Below are positions 951 to 62,632 of a DNA stretch of 64,000 nucleotides, piece by piece. The number at the start of each line of letters is the position of its first letter. Positions within the stretch are counted from its first letter, which is position 1. The stretch is from an uncultured bacterium. Its GTDB lineage: Bacteria > Pseudomonadota > Gammaproteobacteria > Pseudomonadales > JADFDG01. The stretch lies in NCBI GenBank assembly GCA_965232985.1, contig CBDDRC010000043.1, forward strand, positions 9,216 through 73,215. Direction: 5' to 3'. The notes beneath the pieces are model-generated. The model searched no databases and had not been told where the DNA came from. It was given only the letters and a program-made list of their open reading frames with translations. The position numbers and the translations under genes are program-made.

Positions 951-3302
951 TCACTCGACCAGGCGACGAAAGAAACCCTTGACCCCCTCAACGGCTTCGA
1001 CCGTCGTCCCGCACAGCGTCGCCTTTTCCGGCACGGTGCCGGCAATCACCGGCACCCGCACCGCAGCGCCGCAACCTTCTGCAGCCCGGGCCTCGCCGCC
1101 AGGCACCAACCACGCCCACTCGACACCGGTCGGGGCAACCGGCGACAGCGCCATTTGCGGCAGGCGACCCGTGAAATCGGCCCAGACCCGCAGGGCCCCG
1201 GTTGCGCCCGACAGCGCTGTCGCCCGGTTGTCGTCATAACCAACCCAGGCGATAGCCAGATGGCTGCCGGTAAAACCGGCAAACCAACTGTCACGCGCGT
1301 TATCGGTCGTCCCGGTTTTGCCGGCGGCGTCGATTTCGCGCGACAACAGGTTGTAGACGCTGCGCGCCGTGCCGCGCCGCACGGTTTCCTGCATCGCATG
1401 CGTCAGCAGGAAGGCCGTCGCCGGCGACAGCACACGTTCGGTGCGCGTTTCCCGCACCAGCAATACGGTGCCATCGGCGGCCAGCACCCCGCGCACTGCG
1501 CGCGGACGAATGCGCAACCCGCCGGAAGCCAGCGGCTGATACATCCCCAGCACCTCCAAGGGCGACAGCGTGGCACTGCCAAGCAACAGCGCCGGATATG
1601 GCGGCAGTTCCGCGTCAACACCGAGCGTGCGGGCCTGGCGGATGACCGTCTCAATGCCAAGCTCAAGCCCCAGCCGCGCCGTTGCCTGATTCCAGGAATT
1701 GGCGAGCGCATCCACCAGCATCACCTGGTGATCCGGCGGGTTACCGTGACTGACATGATCGTAGTTGCCAGGTCGCCAGTCCGGGCTGCCCTTCACTTTC
1801 GCGCTGATCGGCGCGTCGCTGATGAAACTGGCCAGTGAATAACGCTGTGGCTGTTGCAGGGCGGCAAGAAATACCACCGGCTTCATTAGCGAACCGATGG
1901 TGCGCCGCGCATCGACAACGCGATTGAACCCGGCGAAATCGACATCGCGGCCACCAACCGCCGCCTCGATCTCGCCGGTCTGCGGCACCGATACCACCAG
2001 CGCGCCTTCAAGACCGGTCATTCCGTTGTCTTTTTCAATTTGCACCAGTGTTTGTGCAAGCGCCGCCTCGGCAGCCTGCTGCACACCAGGATCAAGCGCG
2101 GTAAATACCGCCAAACCGTCACCGGTCAATGCCTCATTGTCGAGCCGCGATTGCAGTTCCGCGCGCACGATGGCCATGTACGCCGGATAACGATTCAGAC
2201 GCAGACGCGGCGTCGGCACAATATTCAGCGGCAGATTTTTCGCAGTCTCGGCGCGCACTCGGTCAACGCCGCCGGTGGCAACCAGCGCATCAAGCACGGT
2301 GTTGCGTCGTTCGCGGGCACGCTCCGGATGCCGCCAGGGATTCAGTTGGCTGGGCCCTTTGATCAGCCCGACCAGCAAGGCAACCTCTTGCAGTTGCAAC
2401 TCCGCCACCGGCCGTCCGAAGTAGTACAGGCTGCCGAGCGCAAAACCATGCACGGCGCGCCGACCTGCTTGCCCGAGATAAATCTCGTTGCAGTAAGTCT
2501 CAAGAATCGTGTTCTTGTCGTAATGAACCTCGAGCAACACCGCCATGATCGCTTCGATCAGCTTGCGCGTCACCGTGCGCTCGTTGTCGAGATAAAAATT
2601 CTTCACCAGTTGCTGGGTGAGCGTGCTGCCGCCCTGCTGGACTTCGCCGGATTTCACATTCACCCACAAGGCGCGCAGCATGCCGCGCGGCGAAATGCCG
2701 ATGTGCTCGGGAAAATTCCGGTCCTCAACCGCCAGCAGCGTCTCAAGCAGAAAGGGCGGCCGCTCGCCGAGCCGCATTAGCACGCGATCCTCAGCGTCTT
2801 TCGGGCGAATGGTGCCGATCACGACCGGCTCCAGACGCAGCACGCGATCCGCCGCAGTCAGCCGTTCGATGCGTGCCGCAGAAAAAGCGATTGTCGCTTT
2901 CTGCGGGCGCGTCCGCCCTTCCGGAAAAGCAAACCCGCGCGCCACCAGCTGCACCGTCAAGCCATCGGCACTGATCGCGAATTCGCCCTGCGCTGCCGGC
3001 GCCGCAACTTCTCGATAACCGAGCTCACGCAGTTCGCCAAGCAATGCCGCCACAGTGAGTGGCCGGCCGGCGTAAAGATCAAGCGGACGGGCATAAACGC
3101 GCGCCGGCACCGTCCAGCGATGCGCATCGAAGGTGTTGGTCACTACCGCATCAAGGTAGGCGACATACAGTGCGCATATCGTCAATCCGGCGATCATTGC
3201 CCGGAGCAGGAAGCGGCGCACTGCAGGCCAGGGCCCACCGCGCAGGCGCTTACGGCGCCCGGCGACCGGGCCTGAGGAGTTATTGCGGGAAGGTTTCGAC
3301 AT
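951..3302 (-). CDS. mrcB: penicillin-binding protein 1B (bifunctional glycosyltransferase/transpeptidase)
   Basis: ORF 951..3788(-) was trimmed to the ATG at 3302 (MSKPSRNN...). It has a basic tail plus one TM, a UB2H-like insert, GT51 motifs (EDRNF, GGSTLTQQLVKN), and the transpeptidase motifs SLMK (SxxK) and KTGTT. The discarded upstream 162 codons overlap the divergent kinase gene. Confidence 0.85.
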   Translation of the reverse strand: MSKPSRNNSSGPVAGRRKRLRGGPWPAVRRFLLRAMIAGLTICALYVAYLDAVVTNTFDAHRWTVPARVYARPLDLYAGRPLTVAALLGELRELGYREVAAPAAQGEFAISADGLTVQLVARGFAFPEGRTRPQKATIAFSAARIERLTAADRVLRLEPVVIGTIRPKDAEDRVLMRLGERPPFLLETLLAVEDRNFPEHIGISPRGMLRALWVNVKSGEVQQGGSTLTQQLVKNFYLDNERTVTRKLIEAIMAVLLEVHYDKNTILETYCNEIYLGQAGRRAVHGFALGSLYYFGRPVAELQLQEVALLVGLIKGPSQLNPWRHPERARERRNTVLDALVATGGVDRVRAETAKNLPLNIVPTPRLRLNRYPAYMAIVRAELQSRLDNEALTGDGLAVFTALDPGVQQAAEAALAQTLVQIEKDNGMTGLEGALVVSVPQTGEIEAAVGGRDVDFAGFNRVVDARRTIGSLMKPVVFLAALQQPQRYSLASFISDAPISAKVKGSPDWRPGNYDHVSHGNPPDHQVMLVDALANSWNQATARLGLELGIETVIRQARTLGVDAELPPYPALLLGSATLSPLEVLGMYQPLASGGLRIRPRAVRGVLAADGTVLLVRETRTERVLSPATAFLLTHAMQETVRRGTARSVYNLLSREIDAAGKTGTTDNARDSWFAGFTGSHLAIAWVGYDDNRATALSGATGALRVWADFTGRLPQMALSPVAPTGVEWAWLVPGGEARAAEGCGAAVRVPVIAGTVPEKATLCGTTVEAVEGVKGFFRRLVE

Positions 3303-3395
3303 GGCGCGCGAGTATAGCCCGCGCGGTACGGCTAGAATGTGCGCCGCCGCAATCTGGCCTTTATGCCCAAACCGCCCTGCCACAGGAGACATCGG

Positions 3396-4397
3396 ATGGC
3401 CCGCTACGACATCTACGGTATGGGCAATGCCCTGCTGGATACCGAGGTTGAGGTCGATGACGCCTTCCTCGCCCGCATGGGCATTGAGAAGGGCATGATG
3501 ACGCTGGTTGATGCTGATCGTCAGCGCACATTGCTGAATGCACTCACCGCGCATAGCCCGGCACACAAACGCGCCAGCGGCGGTTCGGCAGCAAACTCCA
3601 TCATCGCTGCGCAGTATTTCGGCAGCCGCGCGTTTTTTTCCTGCCGCGTCGCACACGACGATGCCGGCGATTTCTATCTGAACGACATGGAAAAAGCCGG
3701 TGTCAGTGTCAACCGCAACGCGCGTGGCGCTGGCGTCACCGGCCGCTGCCTGGTGATGATCACGCCTGATGCCGAGCGCACCATGCACACATTTCTCGGT
3801 ATTTCCGAGACCCTCTCGCCCGTCGATCTCGACGACAACGCTATCCGCGATGCGCGCTGGACCTATCTCGAAGGCTATCTCGCATCATCGGCCACCGGCC
3901 GGGAAGCGGCGCTGCATGCCGGCCGGATTGCGCGTGCTGCCAGCCGCCAGGTCGCCATGACGTTCTCTGATCCGGCCATGGTGCAATATTTCCGCGACGG
4001 TCTGGCAACCATGCTCGGCGACGGCGTTGATCTGCTGTTCTGCAACCATGTTGAAGCGCAGGCATGGACGGGCACCACGACGATTGCGGATGCTGCCCGC
4101 CTGCTCAAAAGTATTGCACGGTCGTTCGTCATCACCTGCGGCGGCAAAGGCGCGCTGGCATTTGACGGCACCGACTTCCACGATATCGCCCCGACGCCGG
4201 TGCATGCCGTCGACACCAATGGCGCCGGCGATATGTTCGCCGGCGCGTTCCTGCACGGCCTGATCCACGGCATGGCATTCGGCGAAGCCGGGCGACTCGC
4301 CAGCGCAGCGGCGGCCAAAGTGGTGTCGAACTTTGGCCCGCGCCTGCACCCGATGGAGCACATCGAAGTGCTCGACGCTGTCCGGCGCAGCGCCTGA
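3396..4397 (+). CDS. PfkB-family carbohydrate/nucleoside kinase (adenosine-kinase-like)
   Basis: The ATG at 3396 is preceded by AGGAGA (3385-3390). The N-terminus is YDIYGMGNALLD and the PfkB signature DTNGAGDMFAGAFL lies near the C-terminus. Confidence 0.8.
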   Translation: MARYDIYGMGNALLDTEVEVDDAFLARMGIEKGMMTLVDADRQRTLLNALTAHSPAHKRASGGSAANSIIAAQYFGSRAFFSCRVAHDDAGDFYLNDMEKAGVSVNRNARGAGVTGRCLVMITPDAERTMHTFLGISETLSPVDLDDNAIRDARWTYLEGYLASSATGREAALHAGRIARAASRQVAMTFSDPAMVQYFRDGLATMLGDGVDLLFCNHVEAQAWTGTTTIADAARLLKSIARSFVITCGGKGALAFDGTDFHDIAPTPVHAVDTNGAGDMFAGAFLHGLIHGMAFGEAGRLASAAAAKVVSNFGPRLHPMEHIEVLDAVRRSA

Positions 4398-4433
4398 AAT
4401 GCTCGCCGTGTCCCCGAATAGAAGGAAGCCCTC

Positions 4434-4769
4434 ATGACCCTGCTCTGCCGCGTCGATGAGGTGCCCGAGGACACAGCGCGCGGCTTCACGTTCGGCGAAC
4501 ACGCGCTGATCGTGGTGCGGCATAACGGTCAGCTGCACGTCTATGTCAACTGGTGCCCGCACCTGGGCATCGAACTTAACTACCAGCCCGATGAGTTCTT
4601 CGACTACGACCACCATTTTCTGCAATGCGCCAACCACGGCGCACTGTTCGAGGTACACAACGGCCTGTGCATCATCGGGCCCTGCAAGGGCAGCTCGCTG
4701 AAGAAGGTCGGGTTCGCCATTGAGGGCGGCGAGATTCACGTGCACTCGGTGCCGATGCGCACCCGGTGA
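4434..4769 (+). CDS. small Rieske [2Fe-2S] domain protein
   Basis: CPHLG...CANHG (CxH-x-CxxH Rieske ligands). RBS GAAGGAAG lies 5 nt upstream of the ATG. Confidence 0.8.
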   Translation: MTLLCRVDEVPEDTARGFTFGEHALIVVRHNGQLHVYVNWCPHLGIELNYQPDEFFDYDHHFLQCANHGALFEVHNGLCIIGPCKGSSLKKVGFAIEGGEIHVHSVPMRTR

Positions 4770-5053
4770 GCATCGTGCCCGGCTTGTTGGCCGGCCCGGA
4801 TCATGTGTGACGCTGACGCTGCCCCTGCAACTGACTGACTGTATGAGTCTTCATAAGTCTTCGGAGCTCGCCGGCATCGCGACCCCGAGGTGTATGATGG
4901 CGCGCCTGCAGCAGCCATGCCCGGCGGCGACCATTGCGGGGCATGACAAACCACAGAGGACGGATTATTTTGTTGCGTCGATTTTCAGGGGTAAGTCGCG
5001 TATTGAGCGTTTTGCTCGGCGCCGACAACAGTGAATCAGAGGGGGAGTCCGAC

Positions 5054-6022
5054 ATGGCCAAGGCTGCCAAGCATAAGGGCAAGGGCGACAAAAAGAAGGA
5101 TGGCAAGCCGGCCAAAGTGCCCGCCAAAGCCAAAAAGGTTGTGCCGAAGGCTGCAAAGCCTGCGCCAAAGGCGCTCAAGCCTGTCAAAGCGCCAGCCAAA
5201 GCGGCAAAGCCTGCCGCCACCAAGCCGCTAAAAGCCATTAAGGCCAAAGCTGTGGCAAAAGCGCCCGCCAAGGGCCAGCCGGCAAAATCTGTCAAACCGG
5301 CAAGCAAGGCAAAAACCACCGCCAAGCCGTTAAAAAACGCCGCGCCGGCAAAGCCGGTTGCCGCCAAGACCACGCCCAAAACTCCGACGAAAGCCCCGGT
5401 GACGGCGCCCGCTAAAGTGCCACCGGCAACGGCTGCCAAGCCGGCTCCGGCCCGGATCGCTGCCGGCACCAAAGCCAGTGCACCCGCCAGGGTCGAGCCG
5501 CTACCAGCCGAAGTCCGCAAACTCGAGCCGAAAAAAGCACCCGTCGTGAAGCTGCAACCGGTCAAACCGATCAATCCGCTCGAACCGCCGGCCAACCCGA
5601 ACACCCTGATTCATGGCCAAAAGCCATACATCGCCCAGACCGGTGAGCAATACATGAGCGACGGTCAACTCGCTCATTTCCGGCGCATCCTCCACGCTTG
5701 GAAACAGGAACTGATGGAGGAAGTGGACCGGACTGTGCACCACATGCAGGACGAGTCCGCTAACCTGCCTGACCCGAACGATCGCGCTACCCAGGAAGAA
5801 GAATTCGCGCTCGAACTGCGTACCCGCGACCGTGAACGCAAGTTGATCAAAAAGATCGACAAGACCCTCACCATTATTGAAGACGGCGATTACGGCTACT
5901 GTCAGGCCTGCGGCATCGAGATCGGCATCCGCCGCCTGGAAGCGCGCCCCACGGCTGAACTTTGTATCGACTGTAAAACGCTTGCCGAGATCAAAGAAAA
6001 GCAGGTCGGCTCCGGCAGCTGA
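5054..6022 (+). CDS. dksA: RNA polymerase-binding factor DksA with a long Ala/Lys/Pro-rich N-terminal extension
   Basis: The C-terminal part is collinear with DksA: YMSDGQLAHFRRIL, DPNDRATQEEEFALELRTRDRERKLIKKI, and zinc finger CQAC-x17-CIDC. The ATG at 5054 is preceded by GAGGGGGAG. gluQ follows, as in enterobacteria and Pseudomonas. Confidence 0.85.
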   Translation: MAKAAKHKGKGDKKKDGKPAKVPAKAKKVVPKAAKPAPKALKPVKAPAKAAKPAATKPLKAIKAKAVAKAPAKGQPAKSVKPASKAKTTAKPLKNAAPAKPVAAKTTPKTPTKAPVTAPAKVPPATAAKPAPARIAAGTKASAPARVEPLPAEVRKLEPKKAPVVKLQPVKPINPLEPPANPNTLIHGQKPYIAQTGEQYMSDGQLAHFRRILHAWKQELMEEVDRTVHHMQDESANLPDPNDRATQEEEFALELRTRDRERKLIKKIDKTLTIIEDGDYGYCQACGIEIGIRRLEARPTAELCIDCKTLAEIKEKQVGSGS

Positions 6023-6118: not shown

Positions 6119-7024
6119 ATGTACTGCGGCCGCTTCGCTCCCTCGCCTACCGGGCCACTCCACATCGGCTCACTGACTTGTGCGTTGGCAAGTTTTCTTG
6201 ATGCGCGTGCCGCAGGTGGCCGCTGGTTGGTACGTATCGAGGATCTCGATCCACCCCGCGAAAAACCCGGCGCCAGCGCCGGCATTCTGCGCACACTGGA
6301 AGACCATGGCTTGGCCTGGGACGGCGAAGTCGTGTACCAGAGCCGGCGGCACGCGTTGTACGAAGCCGCCCTTGTGCAGCTGGCCCGCGACGGGCACGCA
6401 TTCCGCTGCACGTTGTCGCGCACCCAACTCGATGCTCACGGCAGCAACCATCCCGGCCGCGCGCTCAGCGCGGCACTCTTCGAGCAGACGCTGCTCGACA
6501 AAACGCCGCCCGATGAGCCGCCCGGCTTTACTTGGCGGCTCGACGTACCGACGGCCGATATCCACTTCGTCGATCGCATCCAGGGCGCGCAGCACTGCAA
6601 CCTTGCGCGTGACGGCGGCCCCTTCGTGATCCGGCGCCGTGACGGGCTGTTCGCCTATCAACTGGCGGTTGTCGTTGACGATGCCGCGCAGGGCATCACC
6701 GACGTCGTGCGCGGTTCGGATCTGCTCGATTCGACCCCCCGGCAATTGTTGCTTCAGGAGCGCTTGGGCGTGGCAACTCCTCGCTATGCCCATATTCCGG
6801 TACTCGCTGATGCACAAGGCCAAAAGCTCGGCAAGCAGACGGAGGCTGCCCCGGTGACCGCAGCGCGACGGCTCGCCAACATGAATCTCGCCCTGCGCGC
6901 ACTCGGACAACCCGCGCAACCGGATGCCGACACGCCTGCCGAACTGCTGGCTGCCGCCATCACCCAGTGGTCAAGTGCCCGTATCCCCCACCGCATGGCC
7001 ATTGATCTGACCGCGCTCGCCTGA
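6119..7024 (+). CDS. gluQ: glutamyl-Q tRNA(Asp) synthetase (truncated GluRS paralogue)
   Basis: The N-terminus is GRFAPSPTGPLHIGSL (HIGH-type). It is ~300 aa with no anticodon-binding domain and sits immediately downstream of dksA. Confidence 0.88.
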   Translation: MYCGRFAPSPTGPLHIGSLTCALASFLDARAAGGRWLVRIEDLDPPREKPGASAGILRTLEDHGLAWDGEVVYQSRRHALYEAALVQLARDGHAFRCTLSRTQLDAHGSNHPGRALSAALFEQTLLDKTPPDEPPGFTWRLDVPTADIHFVDRIQGAQHCNLARDGGPFVIRRRDGLFAYQLAVVVDDAAQGITDVVRGSDLLDSTPRQLLLQERLGVATPRYAHIPVLADAQGQKLGKQTEAAPVTAARRLANMNLALRALGQPAQPDADTPAELLAAAITQWSSARIPHRMAIDLTALA

Positions 7025-7120: not shown

Positions 7121-7297
7121 ATGTACACCGATCGCCTGCTGCTCCTGTTCATTCTCGGCGGCTACCTGCTGTCACCGGCGCTCATCGAGTGGTGGAGCGA
7201 CGGCGGCACCGCCTGGTACCGGCCCTATCTGATCTGGCTGGCCCTGATCATCTTCAGTTACTGGATCGGCAAGAGCCGCGACCTCGATGACGTTTGA
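7121..7297 (+). CDS. 58-codon hydrophobic small ORF overlapping the cbrA start (cbrX-like)
   Basis: Not in the ORF track (<60 aa). ATG 7121 to TGA 7295-7297 encodes MYTDRLLLLFILGGYLLSPALIEWWSDGGTAWYRPYLIWLALIIFSYWIGKSRDLDDV, with two predicted TM segments. It overlaps the cbrA ATG (7287) by 11 nt. No strong SD is present. Confidence 0.5.
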   Translation: MYTDRLLLLFILGGYLLSPALIEWWSDGGTAWYRPYLIWLALIIFSYWIGKSRDLDDV

Positions 7298-10277
7298 CCT
7301 GACCCTGCTGTTCGTCATCGGCATCAGCTACCTGCTGGTGCTGTTCGCCATCGCGTGGGCCGCCGACAGCGGCCGGCTGCCGGCAAAAATCATCCGTCAC
7401 CCTGCGGTGTATGTGCTGTCGCTGGGTGTTTACGCCAGCGCCTGGGCGGTATATGGCGCGGTCGGTTTCGCGTTCAATCATGGCTACAATTTCCTGTCGT
7501 TTTACGTCGGCATCTCCGGCGTATTCCTGCTCGCACCCATCCTGCTCGCACCGATTCTGCGGCTGTCGCAAACCTACCAACTGTCCTCGCTCGCCGATCT
7601 GTTCGCCTTTCGCTATCGCAGCTCGATGGCCGGCGGGCTGGTCACCGTGTTCATGCTGCTCGGGGTGCTACCCCTGCTCGCCTTGCAGATCCAGGCGGTG
7701 GCCGACTCGATCCACATCCTCACCAACGAAGCCAGCCGCAACAGCCTTGCATTCTGGTTCTGCATGACCATCACCGCGTTCGCGATCCTGTTCGGTGCGC
7801 GGCACACCGCCCCGCGCGAAAAACACGAGGGCCTGGTCGTTGCGATTGCGGCGGAGTCGCTGATCAAGCTTGTGTCGCTGATCGCCATCGCCCTGTTCAG
7901 CATTTTCGTGGTATTCGACGGCCCGACCGACCTGCACGAATGGCTGCGCGACCATCCGGAAACCCTGACGATGCTGTATGCCCCGCTTGCCGACGGCACC
8001 TGGCACAGCCTGATCCTGGCGTTCTTCGTGTCTGCCGTGGTGATGCCGCACATGTACCACATGGCATTCACTGAAAACCTGAACCCGCGGGCACTGCTCA
8101 CCGCAAGCTGGGGCTTGCCGCTGCTGCTGCTTGCCATGAGCCTCGCCGTACCCTTTGTGCTCTGGGCTGCCATGAAAACAATGCCGGGCACCGACCCCGA
8201 ATATTTTTCGCTCGGCGTGCCGCTGGCGATGGGTTCGCCAACGATGGCCCTGGTGGTGTACATCGGCGGCCTGTCGGCGGCGAGCGGCGTCATCATTGTC
8301 TCCACGCTCGCGCTCGCCGGCATGTGCCTGAATCACCTCGCCATGCCGCTGTACAAGCCCGGTCAAAATGGCGACCTGTACCGCTGGCTGCTGCGGGCCA
8401 AACGCATCCTGATCGCGACGATCATCCTCGGGGCATACCTGTTCTATTACTTTCTCGACAACCACAATACGCTGACCGAGCTGGGCATGCTGGCGTTCGT
8501 CGCCACCTTGCAGTTCGTCCCCGGACTGATCGGCGTCCTGTTCTGGCCCGCTGCCAACCGTGCCGGCTTCATCGCCGGGCTCATCGCCGGGTTTGTGGTC
8601 TGGTTTTTCGCGCTGCTGCTGCCCACCATCACTCCTTTCGCCGGCATTGCGCTGCCGTTTTTCGGTATCGATTTTGAACCGAACGCGACCAACTGGCACA
8701 CTGCCGCCTTCACTGCCATCATCCTCAACGGCCTGCTGGGCAGCGTGGTCTCGATGATCACCTCCCGCAGTGACGCCGAGAAGCGTGCCGCCGAAACCTG
8801 TGCCGTCGATAATCTGCGTCGACCCTATCGCTGGAAACTCGGCGCCGTGAGCGTCGAAGATTTCGTCAAGGCACTGGCCTTGCCGCTCGGTGCCGCCACC
8901 GCACGCCGCGAGATCGACTTTGCGCTGCGTGATCTGAAACTCGTCGACAGCGAAACGCGGCCGTACATGCTGCGGCGTCTGCGCGACCAGGTAGAGACGA
9001 ATCTTTCGGGCCTGCTCGGCCCGTCGGTTGCGCACGATATCGTCGATGATGTGTTGCCTTACAAACCACTGGCGGAAGGTCAGGGCGCCGAAGACATCCA
9101 TTTTATCGAGAGCCGGCTTGAGGACTACCAGTACCGGCTCTCCGGTCTCGCCGCAGAACTCGACAACCTGCGGCGTTTCCATCGCCAGACGCTGCACGAT
9201 CTGCCGCTCGGCGTGTGCTCGCTGGGCACCGACCGCGAGATTCTCGGCTGGAATGCGGTCATGGAATCGCTTACCGGCATTCGCGCCAGCGAGATTATCG
9301 GCTCATGGCTACACAATCTGCCGGAACCCTGGCGCCAACTGCTGATGGATTTCGCCGGCAGCAACACCCAGCATGTCCATCAGAAGGCGATTACCATTAA
9401 TGCCCATACCCGCTGGATCAGTCTGCACAAGGCCGCAATCAATCTGCCGGCAGGTCAACAACAACTGGGCGCGCAGGTGATCGTGATCGAAGACCTCACC
9501 GACATGAAAACACTCGAGGCGCGCCTCACGCACAATGAGCGTCTTGCTTCGATCGGCCGCCTGGCCGCCGGTGTTGCCCACGAGATCGGCAACCCGGTGA
9601 CGGGCATTGCCTGTCTGGCACAGGATCTGGCCACGGAAAACGAGAATGTCGTCGTGCGCGATTACACGCGGCAGATTCTTGAGCAGACGCGCCGCATCGA
9701 TCGCATCGTCCAGTCGTTGGTCAGCTTCAGTCATAGCGGCAAGCAACGCGCCACCGCCACCGATCCCGTCGTACTGCACCAAGCCATCGATGAAGCCATC
9801 GCGCTCATTCGTTTGGGCCGCGACGGCCGCGAATTCAATTTCATCAATGAATGCGATGCAACGCTGCGTGTTGTCGGCGATGCCCAGCGACTACTGCAGG
9901 TATTCATCAATCTGCTGAACAATGCCCGCGATGCATCAGCCCCCGGCGACACGGTACGGGTATTTACCGTACCCTCCGGCGACAACACAGTAACCGTCTG
10001 CATCGAGGACAACGGCAGCGGGATTCCTGTCGAGCTGCTGGGCAGGGTGTTTGAGCCTTTTGTCACCACGAAAGATCCCGGCAAGGGCACGGGCCTTGGC
10101 CTCGCGCTCGTTTACAGCATCATCGAAGACCACCAGGGGCACATCGCCATCGAGAGTCCCATCCACCCTGACACGCAACGCGGTACGCGCATCCTCCTGA
10201 CGCTGACGCGCTGGCACGAAGATTCCGCCGAGGCCGCCGCCCACGCTGCCCACAGGCCCGGGGAAGAAAACGCATGA
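7287..10277 (+). CDS. cbrA: CbrA-type sensor histidine kinase (SLC5/sodium:solute-symporter-like domain + PAS + HisKA/HATPase)
   Basis: ~500-aa polytopic N-terminal domain, H-box AAGVAHEIGNPV, and N/G boxes NLLNNARDA, DNGSGI, GTGLGL. It overlaps the downstream NtrC-type regulator by ATGA. Genomic context is dksA-gluQ-...-pcnB. Confidence 0.85.
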   Translation: MTFDLTLLFVIGISYLLVLFAIAWAADSGRLPAKIIRHPAVYVLSLGVYASAWAVYGAVGFAFNHGYNFLSFYVGISGVFLLAPILLAPILRLSQTYQLSSLADLFAFRYRSSMAGGLVTVFMLLGVLPLLALQIQAVADSIHILTNEASRNSLAFWFCMTITAFAILFGARHTAPREKHEGLVVAIAAESLIKLVSLIAIALFSIFVVFDGPTDLHEWLRDHPETLTMLYAPLADGTWHSLILAFFVSAVVMPHMYHMAFTENLNPRALLTASWGLPLLLLAMSLAVPFVLWAAMKTMPGTDPEYFSLGVPLAMGSPTMALVVYIGGLSAASGVIIVSTLALAGMCLNHLAMPLYKPGQNGDLYRWLLRAKRILIATIILGAYLFYYFLDNHNTLTELGMLAFVATLQFVPGLIGVLFWPAANRAGFIAGLIAGFVVWFFALLLPTITPFAGIALPFFGIDFEPNATNWHTAAFTAIILNGLLGSVVSMITSRSDAEKRAAETCAVDNLRRPYRWKLGAVSVEDFVKALALPLGAATARREIDFALRDLKLVDSETRPYMLRRLRDQVETNLSGLLGPSVAHDIVDDVLPYKPLAEGQGAEDIHFIESRLEDYQYRLSGLAAELDNLRRFHRQTLHDLPLGVCSLGTDREILGWNAVMESLTGIRASEIIGSWLHNLPEPWRQLLMDFAGSNTQHVHQKAITINAHTRWISLHKAAINLPAGQQQLGAQVIVIEDLTDMKTLEARLTHNERLASIGRLAAGVAHEIGNPVTGIACLAQDLATENENVVVRDYTRQILEQTRRIDRIVQSLVSFSHSGKQRATATDPVVLHQAIDEAIALIRLGRDGREFNFINECDATLRVVGDAQRLLQVFINLLNNARDASAPGDTVRVFTVPSGDNTVTVCIEDNGSGIPVELLGRVFEPFVTTKDPGKGTGLGLALVYSIIEDHQGHIAIESPIHPDTQRGTRILLTLTRWHEDSAEAAAHAAHRPGEENA

Positions 10278-11620
10278 GCCACATCCTGATCGTCGAGGAC
10301 GAAGCGGTTATCCGCGCGTCGCTGCGCAAGTTGCTGGAGCGCAACGGCTACAGTGTCGCCGAAGCCGGCTCGGTGCAGGAAGTAAAGGAGAAGTACGAGA
10401 TCACCGACTTCGACATGGTACTCAGCGACCTGCGCCTGCCTGGCGAGCCGGGCACCACGATGATCAAACTGGCTGCCCCGGTGCCGGTATTGATCATGAC
10501 CAGCTACGCCAGCCTCAAGTCTGCTGTTGAAGCCATGAAGCTCGGCGCCATCGACTACATCGCCAAACCCTTTGACCACGAGGAAATGTTGCTCGCGGTA
10601 AAACGCATCCTGAAAGAAAGCGCCCTGGAACGACAAGCAGCGGCACTCAAGCAGGATTTGCAACGCAACTACCCGACCACCGGCATTATCGGCAGTTGTG
10701 CGCCCATGCAGGAATTGTTCAAGCGCATCGGGCGCGTTGCACCCACCGACACCACCGTATTGATTCTCGGCGAGTCCGGCACCGGCAAGGAGCTCGTTGC
10801 CCGTGCCCTGCACGAGCAGGGCACGCGCCGCTCCGGGCCGCTTATCTCCGTCAACTGCGCGGCAATTCCTGAGACACTGATTGAAAGCGAGTTGTTCGGC
10901 CACGAGAAGGGCGCATTCACTGGCGCCAACGCCATGCGCAAAGGTCTGTTCGAACCCGCCGACGGCGGCACGCTCTTCGACGATGAGATCGGCGAATTGC
11001 CGCTTGAGGTACAGGCGCGCCTGTTGCGGCTGCTGCAGGAGCGGGAAATCCGGCGCGTCGGCTCAACCGAATCGCGCAAGGTCGATGTCCGCCTCTGCGC
11101 AGCAACCCATCGCGACCTGAAAGCTCTCGTCGGCGCCGGCAAGTTCCGGGAAGACCTTTTCTACCGCCTGGACGTGTTCGAGCTGAAGCTGCCGCCACTG
11201 CGCGAGCGCGGCGACGACGTGATCGAGCTGGCGCAGAAACTCATCGAACGTGCCTGTCGGAAAATCAATCGCAAAACGCTGGCTTATTCCGAGGAATCAC
11301 TGCGCGCCATTCGCAGCTATGCCTGGCCTGGCAACGTGCGTGAACTGGAGAACGCCATCGAGCGGGCCGCGATTCTTTGCGACGACGACGAGATCCTGCC
11401 GGAGCACTTGGGCATTGAGGCCGCCCCCCAGGACCAGGGCGACGCGATGGCGCCTGGCGATCCGTCGGTTGACCTGTCATTGGAGGACTATTTCGCCCGC
11501 TTTGTCCTTGAGCACCAGGACACCATGAGCGAAACCGAACTGGCCCTGAAGCTCGGCATCAGCCGCAAGAGCCTGTGGGAGCGCCGGCAGCGGTTGGGCA
11601 TCCCCCGCAAGAAGAGTTGA
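10274..11620 (+). CDS. cbrB: CbrB-type sigma54-dependent response regulator (REC + AAA+ + Fis-type HTH)
   Basis: REC domain (DMVLSDLRLPG), Walker A GESGTGKE, GAFTGA loop, and C-terminal HTH LALKLGISRKSLWERRQRLGI. Confidence 0.88.
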   Translation: MSHILIVEDEAVIRASLRKLLERNGYSVAEAGSVQEVKEKYEITDFDMVLSDLRLPGEPGTTMIKLAAPVPVLIMTSYASLKSAVEAMKLGAIDYIAKPFDHEEMLLAVKRILKESALERQAAALKQDLQRNYPTTGIIGSCAPMQELFKRIGRVAPTDTTVLILGESGTGKELVARALHEQGTRRSGPLISVNCAAIPETLIESELFGHEKGAFTGANAMRKGLFEPADGGTLFDDEIGELPLEVQARLLRLLQEREIRRVGSTESRKVDVRLCAATHRDLKALVGAGKFREDLFYRLDVFELKLPPLRERGDDVIELAQKLIERACRKINRKTLAYSEESLRAIRSYAWPGNVRELENAIERAAILCDDDEILPEHLGIEAAPQDQGDAMAPGDPSVDLSLEDYFARFVLEHQDTMSETELALKLGISRKSLWERRQRLGIPRKKS

Positions 11621-11641
11621 CCCCTCACCCGGGGCCCTGTG

Positions 11642-11764
11642 TGTTACCAAACGAAACAGGCGGGTACCGTTCATCGGCAGTTAAGTAACATCGCGTCAGC
11701 AGATCATTCCGCCAAAATCAGGTGAATTTTCTGTAACCTTATGTTTTTAAAGCATATTAGTTAC
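11642..11764 (+). promoter_or_regulatory. cluster of TGTTAC/GTAACA half-sites (candidate CbrB upstream activating sequences) plus an A/T-rich bend region
   Basis: TGTTAC 11642-11647, GTAACA 11685-11690, TGTAAC 11732-11737, GTTAC 11760-11764. The A/T-rich stretch 11738-11760 lies between these sites and the sigma54 promoter. Confidence 0.4.
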
Positions 11765-11775
11765 TGTAAAGATAT

Positions 11776-11791
11776 TGGCACGCATCCTGCT
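11776..11791 (+). promoter_or_regulatory. sigma54 (-24/-12) promoter
   Basis: TGGCACGCATCCTGCT. GG is at 11777-11778 and GC at 11789-11790, which is the exact 12-nt register of the consensus TGGCAC-N5-TTGCW. Confidence 0.75.
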
Positions 11792-11801
11792 GTATCTCCA
11801 T

Positions 11802-12080
11802 TGCAACAAGAACAACAACAAACCCGGCTTCTGCACCCATAAAAACAACAACGCAGAAGAAAAAGAACGACAACAGAAGCCAATGCAGTGCATGAACCGA
11901 CGGAGTCAATCCCTCGGTTCTTTTCTTGGACAAGACGACCGGCATCCAAAAACAACAGCCGGCGCCTGCAAGACCGAAGGAAACCCATCGCCATTTGGTG
12001 ATGTAACGGCTTCCTTGATAAAAAGAACAACAAAGATGTACAGAACGGCGGACCGGGAAACCGGCCCGCCGTTCTGCTTT
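11802..12080 (+). ncRNA. crcZ: CrcZ-like A-rich (AAnAAnAA) protein-sponge sRNA; the 5' end is inferred from the promoter
   Basis: It sits between cbrB and pcnB, downstream of a sigma54 promoter. Five A-rich clusters are present: 11805-11822 AACAAGAACAACAACAAA, 11840-11851 AAAAACAACAA, 11856-11878, 11947-11957 AAAAACAACAG, and 12019-12034 AAAAAGAACAACAAAG. They are separated by GC stems and the RNA ends at an intrinsic terminator. There is no RBS or plausible coding potential. Confidence 0.65.
12042..12080 (+). terminator. intrinsic terminator of the CrcZ-like sRNA
   Basis: AGAACGGCGGACCGG-GAAA-CCGGCCCGCCGTTCT followed by GCTTT. Confidence 0.7.
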
Positions 12081-12193
12081 CAGGTTGCTAAAAAGGCCGG
12101 CCGGGCCAAAAGCCGGCACCGGAAAAACTGCCGGAACCCCTCCCCCCTGCTAGACTTGCCGCCGTTTCGTCCCTGACCTGATCGTCGAGCAAC

Positions 12194-13600
12194 ATGCCAA
12201 AACGCCTGGTCGGCTTCATCAGCCGCGTCCTGAATGGCAGCAAGGAACCCAAAGCCGAGCTGCGCGTCATCCCCCGTGAAGCACACCATGTCTCACGCAA
12301 GAACATCAGCCCCAATGCGCTGAAAGTGCTTTATCGCCTGAAGGATGCCGGCTACGAGGCCTACCTCGTCGGCGGTGGCGTGCGCGACCTGCTGCTCGAC
12401 GGCCGCCCCAAGGATTTCGACGTTGCCACCAGCGCGACGCCCGAACAGGTCAAACGGGTCTTCGGCAACTGCCGGCTGATCGGCCGCCGCTTCCGGCTGG
12501 CCCACATCCTCTTTGGCCGCGAGGTCGTCGAAGTGGCGACCTTCCGCGCCAATCATCTGCCGGACGACCCGGGTGACGATGAACACATCCCGGACGACGA
12601 AGACGCCAACGGCTCGGTACACGGCTCCACCGGCATGATTCTGCGCGACAACGTTTGGGGCAATGTCGAGCAGGATGCCTTGCGCCGCGATTTCACCGTC
12701 AATGCGCTCTATTACAACATCGAGAACTTCGCGATCCACGACTACGTCGGCGGCATGAAAGATCTCGAGAAGAAACGCCTGCGGCTGATCGGCGACCCGG
12801 AAACGCGTTACCGGGAAGATCCGGTGCGCATGCTGCGCGCCGTCCGTTTTGCCGCCAAGCTGGGCTTTACCGTCGAGGCCGGCACGGCAAAACCGATTGC
12901 CCAATTGAAGCCCCTGCTGCAACAGGTACCGCCAGCGCGCCTGTTCGACGAAATGCTCAAACTGTTGCTGGCCGGTTATGGCCACGCCAGTTGGGAATGG
13001 CTCGAACGCTTTGGCCTCGACGAGGTGCTGTTCCCCGATACCGCGCACCTCATCCGCCGCGACGCCAACGCACGGAAATTCCTGTTGGCCGCGCTCGACA
13101 ATTCCGATCGGCGTATCGCCGACGGCAAAACCGTTACGCCCGCATTCCTGTTCGCCGCCCTGCTATGGCCAGAAGTCAGTCGTCGCTATCAACAACTGCT
13201 GAGCGAAGGCGTTAACGATCTCGCCGCCATGGCCCAGGCCGGCCAGCAGGTACTCGACGAGCAGTATCGCATCGTCGCCATTCCGCGCCGCTTCTCGGTA
13301 CCGGCACGCGAGATCTGGGAGATGCAGTTGCGCTTGCCCCGGCGCAGCGGCAAACGTGCCGAGGTTCTGCTCGGCAATCCGCGGTTCCGCGCCGCCTATG
13401 ATTTTCTGCTGCTGCGCGAAGCTGCCGGACCAATGGCCGGCGAGCCACCAGACATATTTACCGAGCAACTCGGCAGTTGGTGGAACGACTACCAGCGTGT
13501 CGATTTCGATCAGCGTCAAATCATGTTGCGCGATCTGGAAGCCAGACGGCAGCCTGGCGACGCCGCTGGCCGCAAGCGCCGCCGCCGGCGCAAGAGCTGA
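12194..13600 (+). CDS. pcnB: poly(A) polymerase I
   Basis: Nucleotidyltransferase motif AYLVGGGVRDLLLDGRPKDFDVAT and a basic C-terminal tail. folK follows, as in E. coli and Pseudomonas. Confidence 0.9.
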   Translation: MPKRLVGFISRVLNGSKEPKAELRVIPREAHHVSRKNISPNALKVLYRLKDAGYEAYLVGGGVRDLLLDGRPKDFDVATSATPEQVKRVFGNCRLIGRRFRLAHILFGREVVEVATFRANHLPDDPGDDEHIPDDEDANGSVHGSTGMILRDNVWGNVEQDALRRDFTVNALYYNIENFAIHDYVGGMKDLEKKRLRLIGDPETRYREDPVRMLRAVRFAAKLGFTVEAGTAKPIAQLKPLLQQVPPARLFDEMLKLLLAGYGHASWEWLERFGLDEVLFPDTAHLIRRDANARKFLLAALDNSDRRIADGKTVTPAFLFAALLWPEVSRRYQQLLSEGVNDLAAMAQAGQQVLDEQYRIVAIPRRFSVPAREIWEMQLRLPRRSGKRAEVLLGNPRFRAAYDFLLLREAAGPMAGEPPDIFTEQLGSWWNDYQRVDFDQRQIMLRDLEARRQPGDAAGRKRRRRRKS

Positions 13601-21611: not shown

Positions 21612-21881
21612 TCAACGGCGCAAGCCGAGCGTCTGGATGAGTTTCTGGTAACTGGCCTCGTCGGTGCGCGCCAGATAATCAAGCAGCTTGCGGCGCTGGT
21701 TGACCATGCGGATCAGACCACGACGTGAGTGGTGATCCTTGACGTGATCCTTGAAGTGACCCTGGAGGTGGTCGATTTGCGCTGACAGCAGCGCAACCTG
21801 CACTTCCGGTGACCCAGTGTCGCCGTCCTTGCGTTGAAACTGCTGGACGACCTTTGCTTTTGCTTCTGCAGTAAGAGACAT
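21612..21881 (-). CDS. rpsO: 30S ribosomal protein S15
   Basis: [33 protein letters not shown]...[18 protein letters not shown]. Confidence 0.93.
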
Positions 21882-21951
21882 GTTGTTGCTCCGTCGATGC
21901 ACATGTTTTAAACCGTACTGCCGCGCATCACTGCAGCAGCCGGCACTTTTG

Positions 21952-35268: not shown

Positions 35269-35750
35269 CTATGTGTGGCGAACTTCCTCAATTTCATATT
35301 CAACGACACCACCGGGTGTCTGCACCGGCACCACATCGCCTTCTTCCTTGCCCATCAACGCGCGGGCGATCGGCGACGTGTTTGATATCTTGTTCACTTT
35401 GATGTCGGCCTCATCTTCACCAACGATGGTGTAGGTCACGCGCTCACCCGACGCAACATTGGCGATATCGACGGTCGTGCCAAAAATCACCTTGCCGGTT
35501 TTGGCAATGCGGCTGACGTCGATGACCACGCAATTCGAGAGTTTCATCTCGATTTCCTGAACCCGCCCTTCAGCAAAGCCCTGTTGCTCGCGCGCCGCGT
35601 GGTACTCGGCGTTCTCGCGCAGGTCGCCATGCGCCCGCGCCTCGGCGATCGCGGCAGAAATGCGCTGCCGATCCACGGTCTTGAGCCGTTGCAGTTCCTC
35701 GCGCAGCGCCTCGGCGCCAGCGACAGTCATCGGGTAACGCGTTGGTGTAC

Positions 35751-35754
<4 letters not shown>
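35269..35754 (-). CDS. greA: transcription elongation factor GreA
   Basis: [17 protein letters not shown] coiled-coil tip and a C-terminal FKBP-like domain. The start overlaps the carB stop (ATGA). Confidence 0.92.
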
Positions 35755-39026
<3,272 letters not shown>

Positions 39027-39032
39027 GGTGTT

Positions 39033-40175
39033 CTACCGGCTTTGGCGGCGGGCTTGCATCAGTTCAATGAATTGGTCGAACAACACGTCGGCCTCGTGCG
39101 GACCGGGGCTGGCTTCCGGGTGGCCCTGGAAACTGAACGCCGGCCGGTCCGTGCGCTGGATACCCTGATTACTGCCGTCGAACAGCGAGCGATGGGTGAC
39201 GCGCAGGTTCGCCGGCAACGTTGCCTCATTCACTGCGAAACCATGATTCTGCGCAGTGATCATTACGCGGCCGGTGTGCAGAACCTGCACCGGGTGGTTG
39301 GCGCCGTGGTGACCGAACTTCATCTTCAGGGTCTGCGCGCCGGAAGCGAGCGCCAGCAACTGATGGCCCAGGCAGATACCGAACACCGGCAAGTCGGTGG
39401 TCAGGAATTCGCGGATCGCGGCGATGGCGTAATCGCAGGGTGCCGGATCGCCGGGGCCATTGGAGAGAAAGACGCCGTCCGGCTGAAGTGCACGCACCTC
39501 GGCAGCCGTGGTTTGTGCGGGAACCACCGTAAGCTTGCAGCCGCGATCGACCAGCATGCGCAGGATGTTGCGCTTGACGCCGAAATCGTAAGCGACGACA
39601 TGGAACGGTTGCTGTGCGGGTGCCTGCCGGTGGCCCTTACCCAACTGCCAGGTGCCTTCGTTCCACCGGTAAGCCGTCGCGCAGGTTACTTCCTTCGCCA
39701 AGTCCATACCCTGCAAACCCGGGAACGCCCGGGCGACGGCGACAGCTGCCTGCTCGTCGATCTGTTCGCCGGCAACGACGCAGCCGTTCTGGGCGCCCTT
39801 GTCGCGCAAAAGGCGCGTCAGGCGGCGGGTATCGATCTCGGCGATGCCAACGATGTTGCGCGCCCGCAGCCAGCCCGACAGATCCTGTGTCGCGCGAAAG
39901 CTCGATGCCACCAGCGAGGCGTCACGAATCACCAGCCCGGCACACCAGGCGCGGCCAGCCTCGTCATCCTCATCGTTCACCCCGGTATTGCCGATATGCG
40001 GGTGCGTGAGCGTGACGATCTGGCGGGCATAGGACGGGTCGGTGACGATCTCCTGGTAACCGGTCATCGCGGTGTTGAATACCACTTCCCCGACGGATTG
40101 CCCGCTGGCGCCCAGGGCGACGCCGCGGAACAGGCTGCCATCTTCGAGTGCGAGCAGGGCGGGTGTAACAGCCAA
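39033..40175 (-). CDS. carA: carbamoyl-phosphate synthase small (glutaminase) subunit
   Basis: [13 protein letters not shown] and catalytic Cys in [10 protein letters not shown]. The TTG at 40175 follows GGAGG with an 8-nt spacer. The track start, GTG 40190, directly abuts a stop codon and overlaps that SD. Confidence 0.9.
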
Positions 40176-40280
40176 GGGACCTACCTCCACTTAAGGTTGT
40201 GCGCAGCCTCCCCGCAGCCAGCGGTGCTGCAGGGTCCACCGGGAATCCCGACGTTTGGACTTTGAAAGATAGCTGACCAC

Positions 40281-60777: not shown

Positions 60778-61135
60778 GGGGGCGACATGGCTTCGACGCC
60801 GGTAACAAACCCCAAGGTGCATGCCGAGCCGCTGGCCCAGGCTCGTAAATACACAGCCAGATCAAGTTAGTCGCCAACGACGAAACTTACGCTCTAGCCG
60901 CTTAATCGCGGTTAGCCGTTTTTAGGAAGTTGTCCGTAACTTCCGAAAAAAACGGTCATCCGATACGGAATAGCCTGACGGGACGTCCACGACCGGCAAG
61001 CGAAATTCAGTGGAATCGCTCCAAGCACCCCGCCTGCCGGGTCGCCCAGGAGTTAACTCAATAGGCAACGCTAAGCATGTAGAGCCAAGGGCGGAGTGCT
61101 GACGGACGCGGGTTCGATTCCCGCCGCCTCCACCA
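60778..61135 (+). ncRNA. ssrA: tmRNA (SsrA)
   Basis: The 5' end GGGGGCGACATGGCTTCGACGCCGG pairs with the 3' end ...GGACGCGGGTTCGATTCCCGCCGCCTCCACCA (G3-U, tRNA-Ala-like acceptor). The tag reading frame GCC AAC GAC GAA ACT TAC GCT CTA GCC GCT TAA (60873-60905) encodes ANDETYALAA. Confidence 0.92.
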
Positions 61136-61239: not shown

Positions 61240-61298
61240 GGGGGTACGTGGGGGTACTTTTGTGGGGTACCTGAAACCCCCGCCGGGAATGTACCCCC
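61240..61298 (+). repeat. three direct and one inverted copy of GGGGTAC upstream of int
   Basis: GGGGGTAC 61240-61247 and 61250-61257, GGGGTAC 61264-61270, and inverted GTACCCCC 61291-61298, just before the int ATG at 61301. Confidence 0.6.
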
Positions 61299-61300
61299 AA

Positions 61301-62533: not shown

Positions 62534-62632
62534 TTCAACCGAACCGCTGCGCCTAGCCCGACGGGGCGAAAACGGGGAACCCTACCACGCTGGCGTGGCG
62601 ACTTTTTAGGGAGTGCTCAAGGGGGTGCAACG

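Follow-up and report, generated by a model that had tools for sequence, protein, structure and literature searches.

In Pseudomonas, transcription of CrcZ is driven by CbrAB and sigma-54, and the RNA sequesters Hfq/Crc and frees catabolic mRNAs (for a review see PMC8871633). Further A-rich RNAs which depend on CbrB and sigma-54 and which antagonise Hfq/Crc are CrcY and CrcX in P. putida and P. syringae, and CrcZ and CrcY in Azotobacter vinelandii (PMC6292655, PMC8871633), and both a 2018 paper and a 2022 review regard CbrAB and its small RNAs (sRNAs) as unique to Pseudomonas and Azotobacter (PMC8871633, PMC6296734). Here we describe the spacer between cbrB and pcnB in a 64,000-nt stretch of DNA, referred to below as the window (positions 9,216–73,215 of contig CBDDRC010000043.1, assembly GCA_965232985.1), from an uncultured bacterium placed in JADFDG01 (Pseudomonadales). 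We think it probable that the plus strand of this spacer, from 11803 to about 12085, encodes a non-coding RNA which corresponds to Pseudomonas CrcZ in position and function and whose body has diverged.

The likeness to CrcZ of P. aeruginosa and P. putida lies in the position between cbrB and pcnB (the order cbrB–CrcZ–pcnB is also that of three Pseudomonas loci, L001, L002 and L004), in a promoter which agrees at 15 of 16 bases, in CbrB subsites with a spacing of about 21 bp, and in an RNA with an A-rich stretch at the 5′ end, unpaired AANAANAA motifs and an intrinsic terminator. The differences are that the window RNA is split into two modules by a conserved internal terminator, and that it is predicted to be about 280 or 125 nt long (ending at the terminal terminator T2 or the internal terminator T1), whereas CrcZ RNAs have some 370–410 nt and the Rfam model has 398 positions. 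The host also differs, as it lies outside Pseudomonas and Azotobacter and its PcnB is 50–53% identical to that of Pseudomonas. The genes for CrcY and CrcX lie at other sites of their genomes, whereas the window RNA occupies the crcZ position, and no second copy was found within the 64-kb window by searches with the motif and with our own covariance model of the RNA. A further likeness is to RsmY, RsmZ and CsrB, in which a two-component system also drives an RNA with many short protein-binding motifs; these, however, bind CsrA/RsmA and carry GGA motifs in their hairpin loops, whereas the repeats of the window RNA are of the ARN type, and the Rfam search of the window matched no Rsm or Csr family. 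The nearest find outside Pseudomonas and Azotobacter in the literature searched, the Hfq-associated sRNA99 of Acinetobacter baumannii, which carries A-rich (AAN) motifs, has been compared to CrcZ by its authors; the passage which describes it gives three motifs and mentions neither linkage to cbrB or pcnB nor a sigma-54 promoter (PMC12802169).

An earlier interpretation of this DNA, referred to here as the sequence-only reading, had proposed a CrcZ-like RNA in the spacer, and most of its description stands. The 573-nt spacer between the end of cbrB at 11620 and the start of pcnB at 12194 is indeed not empty, and the promoter, motifs, fold and hairpins were all found where they had been placed. 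The near-consensus -24/-12 promoter is the sole match to the pattern TGGCAC-N5-YTGCW on either strand of the window and is conserved amongst relatives, and the five AAnAAnAA clusters interspersed with GC stems correspond to 12 AANAANAA matches on the plus strand within about 230 nt (11805–12033). The CCGGC…GCCGG stem with a motif in its loop, which had been put at 11939–11962, is recovered by the predicted fold with slightly wider limits (see Table 1). The strong intrinsic terminator at 12042–12080 is upheld by its -31 kcal/mol hairpin but not by its U tail, which is weak in the window, and the anatomy as a single unit is correct in its elements but overlooked the conserved internal terminator which splits the RNA into two modules.

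The position and architecture are also those of crcZ, with orthologous cbrAB genes, promoter, CbrB subsites and adjacency to pcnB matching Pseudomonas, and the unpaired A-rich motifs agreeing at the level of sequence. CbrB shows 63–64% identity to the CbrB proteins of Pseudomonas, Phytopseudomonas and Gilvimarinus, against no more than 48% for generic NtrC-family proteins, and carries a GAFTGA motif at residue 213. CbrA aligns over its full length (residues 1–975) with Pseudomonas CbrA at 56–57% identity. On these identities the flanking kinase and regulator are true CbrA and CbrB orthologues.

The promoter was compared across a clade of seven sequences (referred to below as the clade) which comprises the window, L081–L085, found by a pcnB-anchored scan of species-representative genomes, and L163; the relatives are all from uncultured gammaproteobacterial genomes or contigs. 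L163, a new relative cut at its contig end, came from a metagenome scan with a clade-specific sequence pattern, which otherwise gave only a near-identical copy (L161) and a chance match (L162). L081–L085 are on contigs JBMOOP010000136, JADFDG010000018, JBKHWN010000018, JBMOON010000040 and JBKHWA010000029. The promoter is identical in six of the seven sequences, with one C-to-T change in the seventh, and shares 15 of 16 bases with the crcZ promoter (PcrcZ) of P. fildesensis, TGGCACGCACCCTGCT (L001), a match on which it is orthologous to PcrcZ. In P. fildesensis the Rfam CrcZ match starts at 4633, 13 nt past the C of the -12 GC in this promoter, and in the clade alignment the sequence varies over the 11 nt that separate the promoter from 11803 and becomes conserved again at GCAACAA. 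We place the RNA start at about 11803 because of this Pseudomonas offset and the onset of conservation.

PcrcZ of P. putida has three subsites (TGTTAC, GTAACA and GTAACg) with a spacing of 20–25 bp and needs IHF (PMC6296734). The upstream region of the window carries three candidate CbrB subsites, F1, R1 and R2, whose centres are 21 and 22 bp apart. R2 is invariant in all seven clade sequences, GTTAC of F1 is invariant with CGTTAC in L083 as the sole variant, and R1 reads GGTAAC or CGTAAC in four of the seven. Between the subsites and the promoter, a conserved AT-rich block occupies the position expected for the IHF site of Pseudomonas crcZ promoters; read by eye, it has one mismatch to the reverse IHF consensus YAANNNNTTGATW in the relatives and matches less well in the window, and we regard it as a putative IHF site. 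We note that the Rfam family P36 matches L001 and L002 at 4477–4537, a Pseudomonas stretch in which a hairpin that closely follows cbrB lies together with the CbrB subsites, and that this sRNA family may in fact represent the cbrB terminator plus the crcZ enhancer region.

The motif content and the fold of the region are both well beyond the values obtained from randomised sequences. The window contains 50 AANAANAA matches, against 14.0 ± 4.3 in shuffles, and 36 runs of at least four ARN triplets, six of them in the RNA region, against 8.8 ± 2.4 runs for the whole window in first-order Markov simulations. For the 284-nt RNA the folding energy is -96 kcal/mol, compared with -64 ± 4.4 kcal/mol for shuffles (z = -7.3, with none of 200 shuffles as good), and the prediction leaves the A-rich clusters in loops or unpaired strands. 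A functionless low-complexity A-rich spacer with fortuitous hairpins could appeal to the single promoter-pattern match, which is not significant alone, yet it is hardly to be reconciled with this enrichment and fold, with a column identity of 83% although the proteins of the relatives are 72–98% identical, or with a co-occurrence with cbrB which is perfect across 80 loci (see below), and we give it almost no credence.

Two intrinsic terminators are found in the RNA, and as T1 is kept in all relatives and is the sole terminator in L083, two RNA forms are predicted: termination at T1 would give about 125 nt (module 1) with three clusters, and read-through as far as T2 about 280 nt with five clusters. 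In the minimum-energy fold of module 1, cluster 1 (11807–11812) pairs with the T1 U tract (11923–11928) in five of six clade members, as AAGAA:UUCUU in the window and as AAUAA:UUAUU in L082, a single compensatory event from G:C to U:A, and the modelled panhandle may gate the strongest Hfq site. The 5′ arm of stem 1 contains GGCUUCUGC, which can pair alternatively with a CAGAAG copy (GCAGAAG) at 11853–59 instead of 11874–81; both pairings are equally conserved (kept in 97–98% of cells over the seven sequences, with no compensatory change), and the two may constitute a structural switch. Terminator-like sites reported by the scanner on the minus strand were rejected as features of their own, since they mirror the palindromic plus-strand hairpins, with the A-rich clusters in complement after them.

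The PcnB proteins of L081–L085 are 98, 84, 78, 74 and 72% identical to that of the window (the next best match, from Motiliproteus, is about 55% identical), and the promoter and RNA are present in all five loci as well as in L163. The motif clusters, whose lack of conservation in related genomes the sequence-only reading had named as a point that would tell against it, are conserved across the clade. Mean column identity in module 1 is 83% over the seven sequences, and a covariance model which we built on module 1 of the clade (model R1) scores clade members at 123–149 bits and everything else at no more than 20 bits. The T1 U tract is kept in all relatives, and the T1 hairpin has two compensatory base pairs in L083, where module 1 stands alone (2254–2384) with T1 as the only terminator and the pcnB upstream region follows directly. 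Further downstream, the stem of the cluster-4 hairpin changes from CCGGC/GCCGG to GCGGC/GCCGC in L084 and L085 with the pairing and the A-rich loop retained (read by eye), an A-rich stretch precedes T2 in all four full-length relatives, the T2 core GGCGG.CCGG....CCGG.CCGCC is conserved, and the T2 U tail is better in L082, L084 and L085.

This alignment also bears on whether the region encodes a small Asn/Lys-rich protein. A 133-aa open reading frame (ORF) on the plus strand (11775–12176) and two on the minus strand (11757–12119 and 11761–12033) do occur in a mechanical list of ORFs, but the plus-strand ORF starts inside the promoter and crosses both terminators, indels of 1, 2 and 21 nt separate the relatives, whose longest open frames differ in frame, strand and sequence, and the G+C content at third codon positions (GC3) is 0.60, compared with about 0.72–0.79 in neighbouring genes. 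As the 1- and 2-nt indels and the lack of a common ORF show that the region is not coding, we rejected this very improbable explanation, in agreement with the earlier view that the overlapping ORFs merely translate the A-rich motifs.

A more serious alternative is that the RNA acts mainly as a base-pairing, Hfq-dependent class II sRNA, with the single-stranded CCAAUGCAGUGCA as the seed against specific mRNAs and Hfq titration as a secondary effect. In class II sRNAs, ARN motifs serve for contact with the distal face of Hfq and the terminator U tail for contact with the proximal face. Module 1 would suit such a role, being only about 125 nt long with a terminator followed by a conserved U tract and occurring alone in L083, and the 13-nt block, invariant in all seven sequences, is not explained by the sponge model. 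Against this, three to five long ARN clusters far exceed what a base-pairing sRNA needs, the RNA has the promoter, position and motif design of CrcZ, and the 13-mer is partly paired in the predicted fold, in an AUGC/GCAU hairpin. We therefore judge a mainly base-pairing role unlikely, though it is the strongest of the rivals and would be compatible with a role as a sponge.

The adjacency to pcnB has to be weighed in the same way. The RNA could be a pcnB 5′ leader, in which case the sigma-54 promoter would drive pcnB, the hairpins would be attenuators and translation of pcnB would be controlled by Hfq through the A-rich sites, and this would fit with the two lying on the same strand, with the RNA directly upstream of pcnB, with an adjacency kept in all lineages examined, and with the weak U tail of T2 in the window. 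However, two terminator hairpins, one of -31 kcal/mol, separate the promoter from pcnB, and the Pseudomonas equivalent is a separate sRNA gene. Moreover, an extended -10 element downstream of T2, conserved in the clade and in Pseudomonas (P. fildesensis carries TGcTAGAAT at the corresponding position before pcnB), is, read by eye, probably pcnB's own promoter, and its location between T2 and pcnB speaks for transcription of the RNA as a unit of its own. A leader is accordingly an improbable explanation, and the CrcZ counterpart remains our preferred reading.

The association of the RNA with cbrB extends beyond the clade. In a survey of pcnB loci (the best 80 by identity from the scan), a cbrB orthologue was found upstream in 12, belonging to the clade, four Motiliproteus and three metagenome-assembled genomes (MAGs) of the Alcanivoracaceae. 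Between cbrB and pcnB, all 12 have 5–14 AANAANAA motifs in a stretch of 350 nt, and all 68 loci without an upstream cbrB have three or fewer, so that the A-rich RNA is strictly associated with cbrB across lineages. The Cellvibrionaceae loci were retrieved separately. The cbrB–RNA–pcnB layout recurs in Gilvimarinus agarilyticus and in the Cellvibrionaceae MAG L005, and in the latter two tandem units, each a sigma-54 promoter plus an A-rich RNA, lie between cbrB and pcnB (4650–5200), resembling a CrcZ/CrcY pair placed side by side. In Motiliproteus (L086 at 1590–1800, L087, L088 and L091) the hairpin loops of the cbrB-linked RNA repeat CAAUAAAAAUAA(A/C)AA (CAAUAAAAAUAAAAA). A sigma-54 promoter and several TGTTAC/GTAACA sites lie in front of this RNA, which has no Rfam match.

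The RNAs of Motiliproteus, Alcanivoracaceae, Gilvimarinus and Cellvibrionaceae are like the window RNA in position, in mostly having a sigma-54 promoter and TGTTAC/GTAACA sites, and in their A-rich hairpin loops, but their repeat units and stems are unlike those of the window RNA. An AAYAACAAG-like 5′ stretch follows the promoter in the window, Pseudomonas, Motiliproteus, Gilvimarinus and Alcanivoracaceae RNAs. The Alcanivoracaceae RNAs share the string GGCU...AGCCAAU.CAG.CAUG, and amongst them a string like the 13-mer CCAAUGCAGUGCA was seen after a GGCUC...GAGCC stem in L150 (about 2163–2179, GAGCCAAUACAGCAUGG) and also in L090; judged from these strings, it may hint at deeper homology, or at a seed or processing site. 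We found no description of these cbrB-linked RNAs, nor of any cbrB-linked CrcZ-type RNA outside Pseudomonas and Azotobacter, in the literature searched, which covered few subscription journals and in which the genera included Marinobacter, Alcanivorax, Halomonas, Cellvibrio, Oceanospirillales and Acinetobacter. Together with the absence of the window RNA from Rfam, this agrees with the suggestion of the sequence-only reading that the RNA is undescribed and lies beyond the known range of the circuit.

A number of observations weigh against the RNA being a counterpart of CrcZ, the first of which concerns family membership. We ran Rfam on the whole window at the gathering threshold, on 11600–12200 at E ≤ 10, and on 18 related loci. 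At the gathering threshold there was no match in the cbrB–pcnB spacer, and the covariance search with Rfam CrcZ (RF01675), which the sequence-only reading had put forward as a check, gave 15.8 bits against a cut-off of 95 in the permissive run, over 48 nt of one A-rich stretch, and so does not place the RNA in the family; all other matches of that run were noise. As a positive control, the three Pseudomonas loci score 234–350 bits with the same model, and amongst the 18 related loci the threshold is reached in true Pseudomonas only, and not in Cellvibrionaceae, Motiliproteus, Alcanivoracaceae or the clade. Reciprocally, model R1 scores Pseudomonas CrcZ at no more than 13 bits. With the Rfam model and the reciprocal clade model both failing, homology of the RNA body is not demonstrable; but as model R1 finds the clade alone (the other cbrB-linked RNAs reach at most 20 bits, through their A-rich-plus-terminator likeness), it provides no evidence for or against deeper homology. 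The comparison supports an RNA that appears to be like CrcZ by position, promoter, subsites and motifs but is not a member of RF01675 as modelled.

Other points against it come from the locus and its conservation. At least one match to the promoter pattern occurred in 28 of 100 shuffles, so the lone match is not significant and the weight of the promoter rests on its conservation and position. The window has a degenerate R1 (GGTACC) and L081 has lost this subsite, and the T2 U tail in the window reads CUUUCAGG. Covariation is thin, with two compensatory pairs amongst seven sequences, both in T1, and 97% of cells paired, and the observed covariation values were reached by 23–31 of 500 shuffles; this is limited because the sample is small and closely related. 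In L006, a MAG labelled Pseudomonadaceae, a CbrB-like gene of 60% identity (3143–4643) has neither an A-rich RNA nor pcnB downstream, and is an exception to the cbrB–RNA–pcnB rule or a paralogue. Finally, crc, hfq and rpoN were not found within the 64-kb window, which is part of the genome (there was no tblastn match to hfq in the window, and no Crc-like (Exo_endo_phos) protein amongst the 30 of 53 predicted proteins which were scanned).

From the work on Pseudomonas we infer that the RNA is transcribed under the control of CbrB and RpoN, that it binds Hfq/Crc, and that its physiological role is as follows. On exhaustion of preferred carbon sources, CbrA would activate CbrB, which would bind the three subsites some 115–160 bp upstream of the start and, probably assisted by an IHF-like bend, activate the sigma-54 promoter. 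The resulting transcript would keep five (ARN)n/AANAANAA clusters single-stranded at its 5′ terminus, within large loops and ahead of the terminator, and these clusters would occupy the distal face of Hfq, together with Crc if the genome encodes it. Catabolic mRNAs would then lose Hfq from the A-rich sites of their translation-initiation regions, and catabolite repression would be relieved.

Table 1. Coordinates of the RNA, its control region and the flanking genes (window positions).
Feature	Position	Strand	Observation
gluQ	6119–7024		
cbrX-like 58-aa ORF	7121–7297	+	11-nt overlap with cbrA start; two hydrophobic stretches in translation
cbrA, sensor kinase, 996 aa, N-terminal multi-pass membrane domain	7287–10277	+	Pfam PAS, HisKA, HATPase_c
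cbrB, sigma-54-dependent response regulator	10274–11620	+	Pfam REC, Sigma54 activator domain, AAA lid
CbrB-type subsites, upstream activating region	11642–11690	+	F1 TGTTAC 11642–47; R1-like GGTACC 11663–68; R2 GTAACA 11685–90
Conserved AT-rich block	11735–11752		AACC.ATTGTTTTTAAAGG (AACCCATTGTTTTTAAAGG) in relatives; alignment, read by eye
Sigma-54 -24/-12 promoter	11776–11791	+	TGGCACGCATCCTGCT; sole TGGCAC-N5-YTGCW match in window, both strands
Module 1, predicted short form, about 125 nt	11803–11928	+	
A-rich cluster 1	11805–11822	+	AACAAGAACAACAACAAA = (ARN)6; sole (ARN)6 run in window
Stem 1	11826–33 / 11874–81	+	GGCUUCUG/CAGAAGCC; folds, 40-nt loop with clusters 2 (11841–52) and 3 (11855–78)
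13-mer	11879–11891	+	CCAAUGCAGUGCA; identical in 7/7 clade sequences
Internal intrinsic terminator T1	11894–11927	+	Hairpin 11894–11920 (-13.6 kcal/mol), then UUUUCUU
Hairpin with cluster 4	11936–11964	+	AAAAACAACAG in 14-nt loop; CCGGC…GCCGG fold, AAAAACAACA in loop
Variable structured spacer	11965–12016	+	Paired in fold; poorly conserved, 21-nt indel among relatives
A-rich cluster 5	12020–12035	+	AAAAAGAACAACAAAG; motif matches
Terminal terminator T2	12041–12085	+	15-bp hairpin 12041–12076, -31 kcal/mol
Extended -10 element	12148–12156	+	TGcTAGACT; TAGACTTGCCGCC conserved in all clade members, downstream of T2; read by eye
pcnB, poly(A) polymerase	12194–13600	+	NCBIfam TIGR01942, 509.5 bits vs cut-off 305.65

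The gene order around the RNA is gluQ, a cbrX-like ORF, cbrA, cbrB, the RNA, pcnB, folK, panB, panC and panD (NCBIfam and Pfam), and by this gene content the neighbourhood is the Pseudomonas cbr locus. The domain make-up of CbrA, the features of CbrB and the small ORF overlapping the cbrA start are those of a CbrAB system, with CbrA residues 1–490 holding 11 transmembrane-like segments; it should be noted that this membrane domain gave no SSF match in Pfam at E ≤ 1e-3. CbrX of P. putida is a 58-aa protein whose gene overlaps cbrA by 17 nt and is translationally coupled to it (PMC6591292). The ORF in the window is of equal length and similarly arranged, a likeness of length and position rather than one drawn from sequence comparison, and it has no Pfam match. 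We note that cbrX has been reported as conserved in Pseudomonas and Azotobacter only, and that a cbrX-like ORF is present here. The wider gene order (acs, pnp-rpsO-truB-infB, tpiA-glmM-folP-ftsH-rlmE, dapB and dnaK-grpE) presumably also resembles that of Pseudomonas.

Elsewhere in the window, a tmRNA (60778–61135) is followed by a tyrosine integrase gene (61262–62533) and an int-alpA RNA (62546–62611), an arrangement which suggests that an island or prophage has integrated at ssrA and that its border is seen here. Two plus-strand ORFs of 288 and 1212 aa (35742–40265) have no Pfam, NCBIfam or PADLOC match, and their GC3 is 0.63 compared with about 0.72 in their neighbours. An S15 ribosomal leader lies upstream of rpsO-pnp on the minus strand (21825–21944; Rfam, 45.3 bits) and is an ordinary feature.

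Taken together with the parallel loci, the window locus suggests that the circuit is much wider amongst marine and uncultured Gammaproteobacteria than has been stated. We tentatively read these data as pointing to an old CbrAB/sponge-RNA module spread over several families, with fast turnover of the RNA body and a modular, tunable RNA in the clade, although we hold this joint reading to be somewhat less likely than not to be correct in full. In its first part, the circuit from CbrAB to an A-rich sponge would be common to the clade, Motiliproteus, Alcanivoracaceae and Cellvibrionaceae, and would not be an invention of the Pseudomonadaceae. In its second, selection would keep only the promoter, the position next to pcnB, the 5′ ARN site and the number of motifs, and the RNA body would be replaced too fast for covariance models to cross lineages. 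In its third, T1 would give rise to forms with three and five sites, and sponge capacity would be tunable after the start of transcription.

What is new here is the taxonomic range of the Cbr/CrcZ circuit and the modular design with two terminators, and not the mechanism itself. If this is true, then ‘reverse’ catabolite repression by titration of Hfq would extend to a wider set of environmentally important heterotrophs, and cultivable models other than Pseudomonas would become available. It would also provide a clear example of a regulatory RNA in which promoter, position and motif grammar are conserved while the sequence changes too far for family models to follow, and would serve as a warning for annotation which relies on Rfam.

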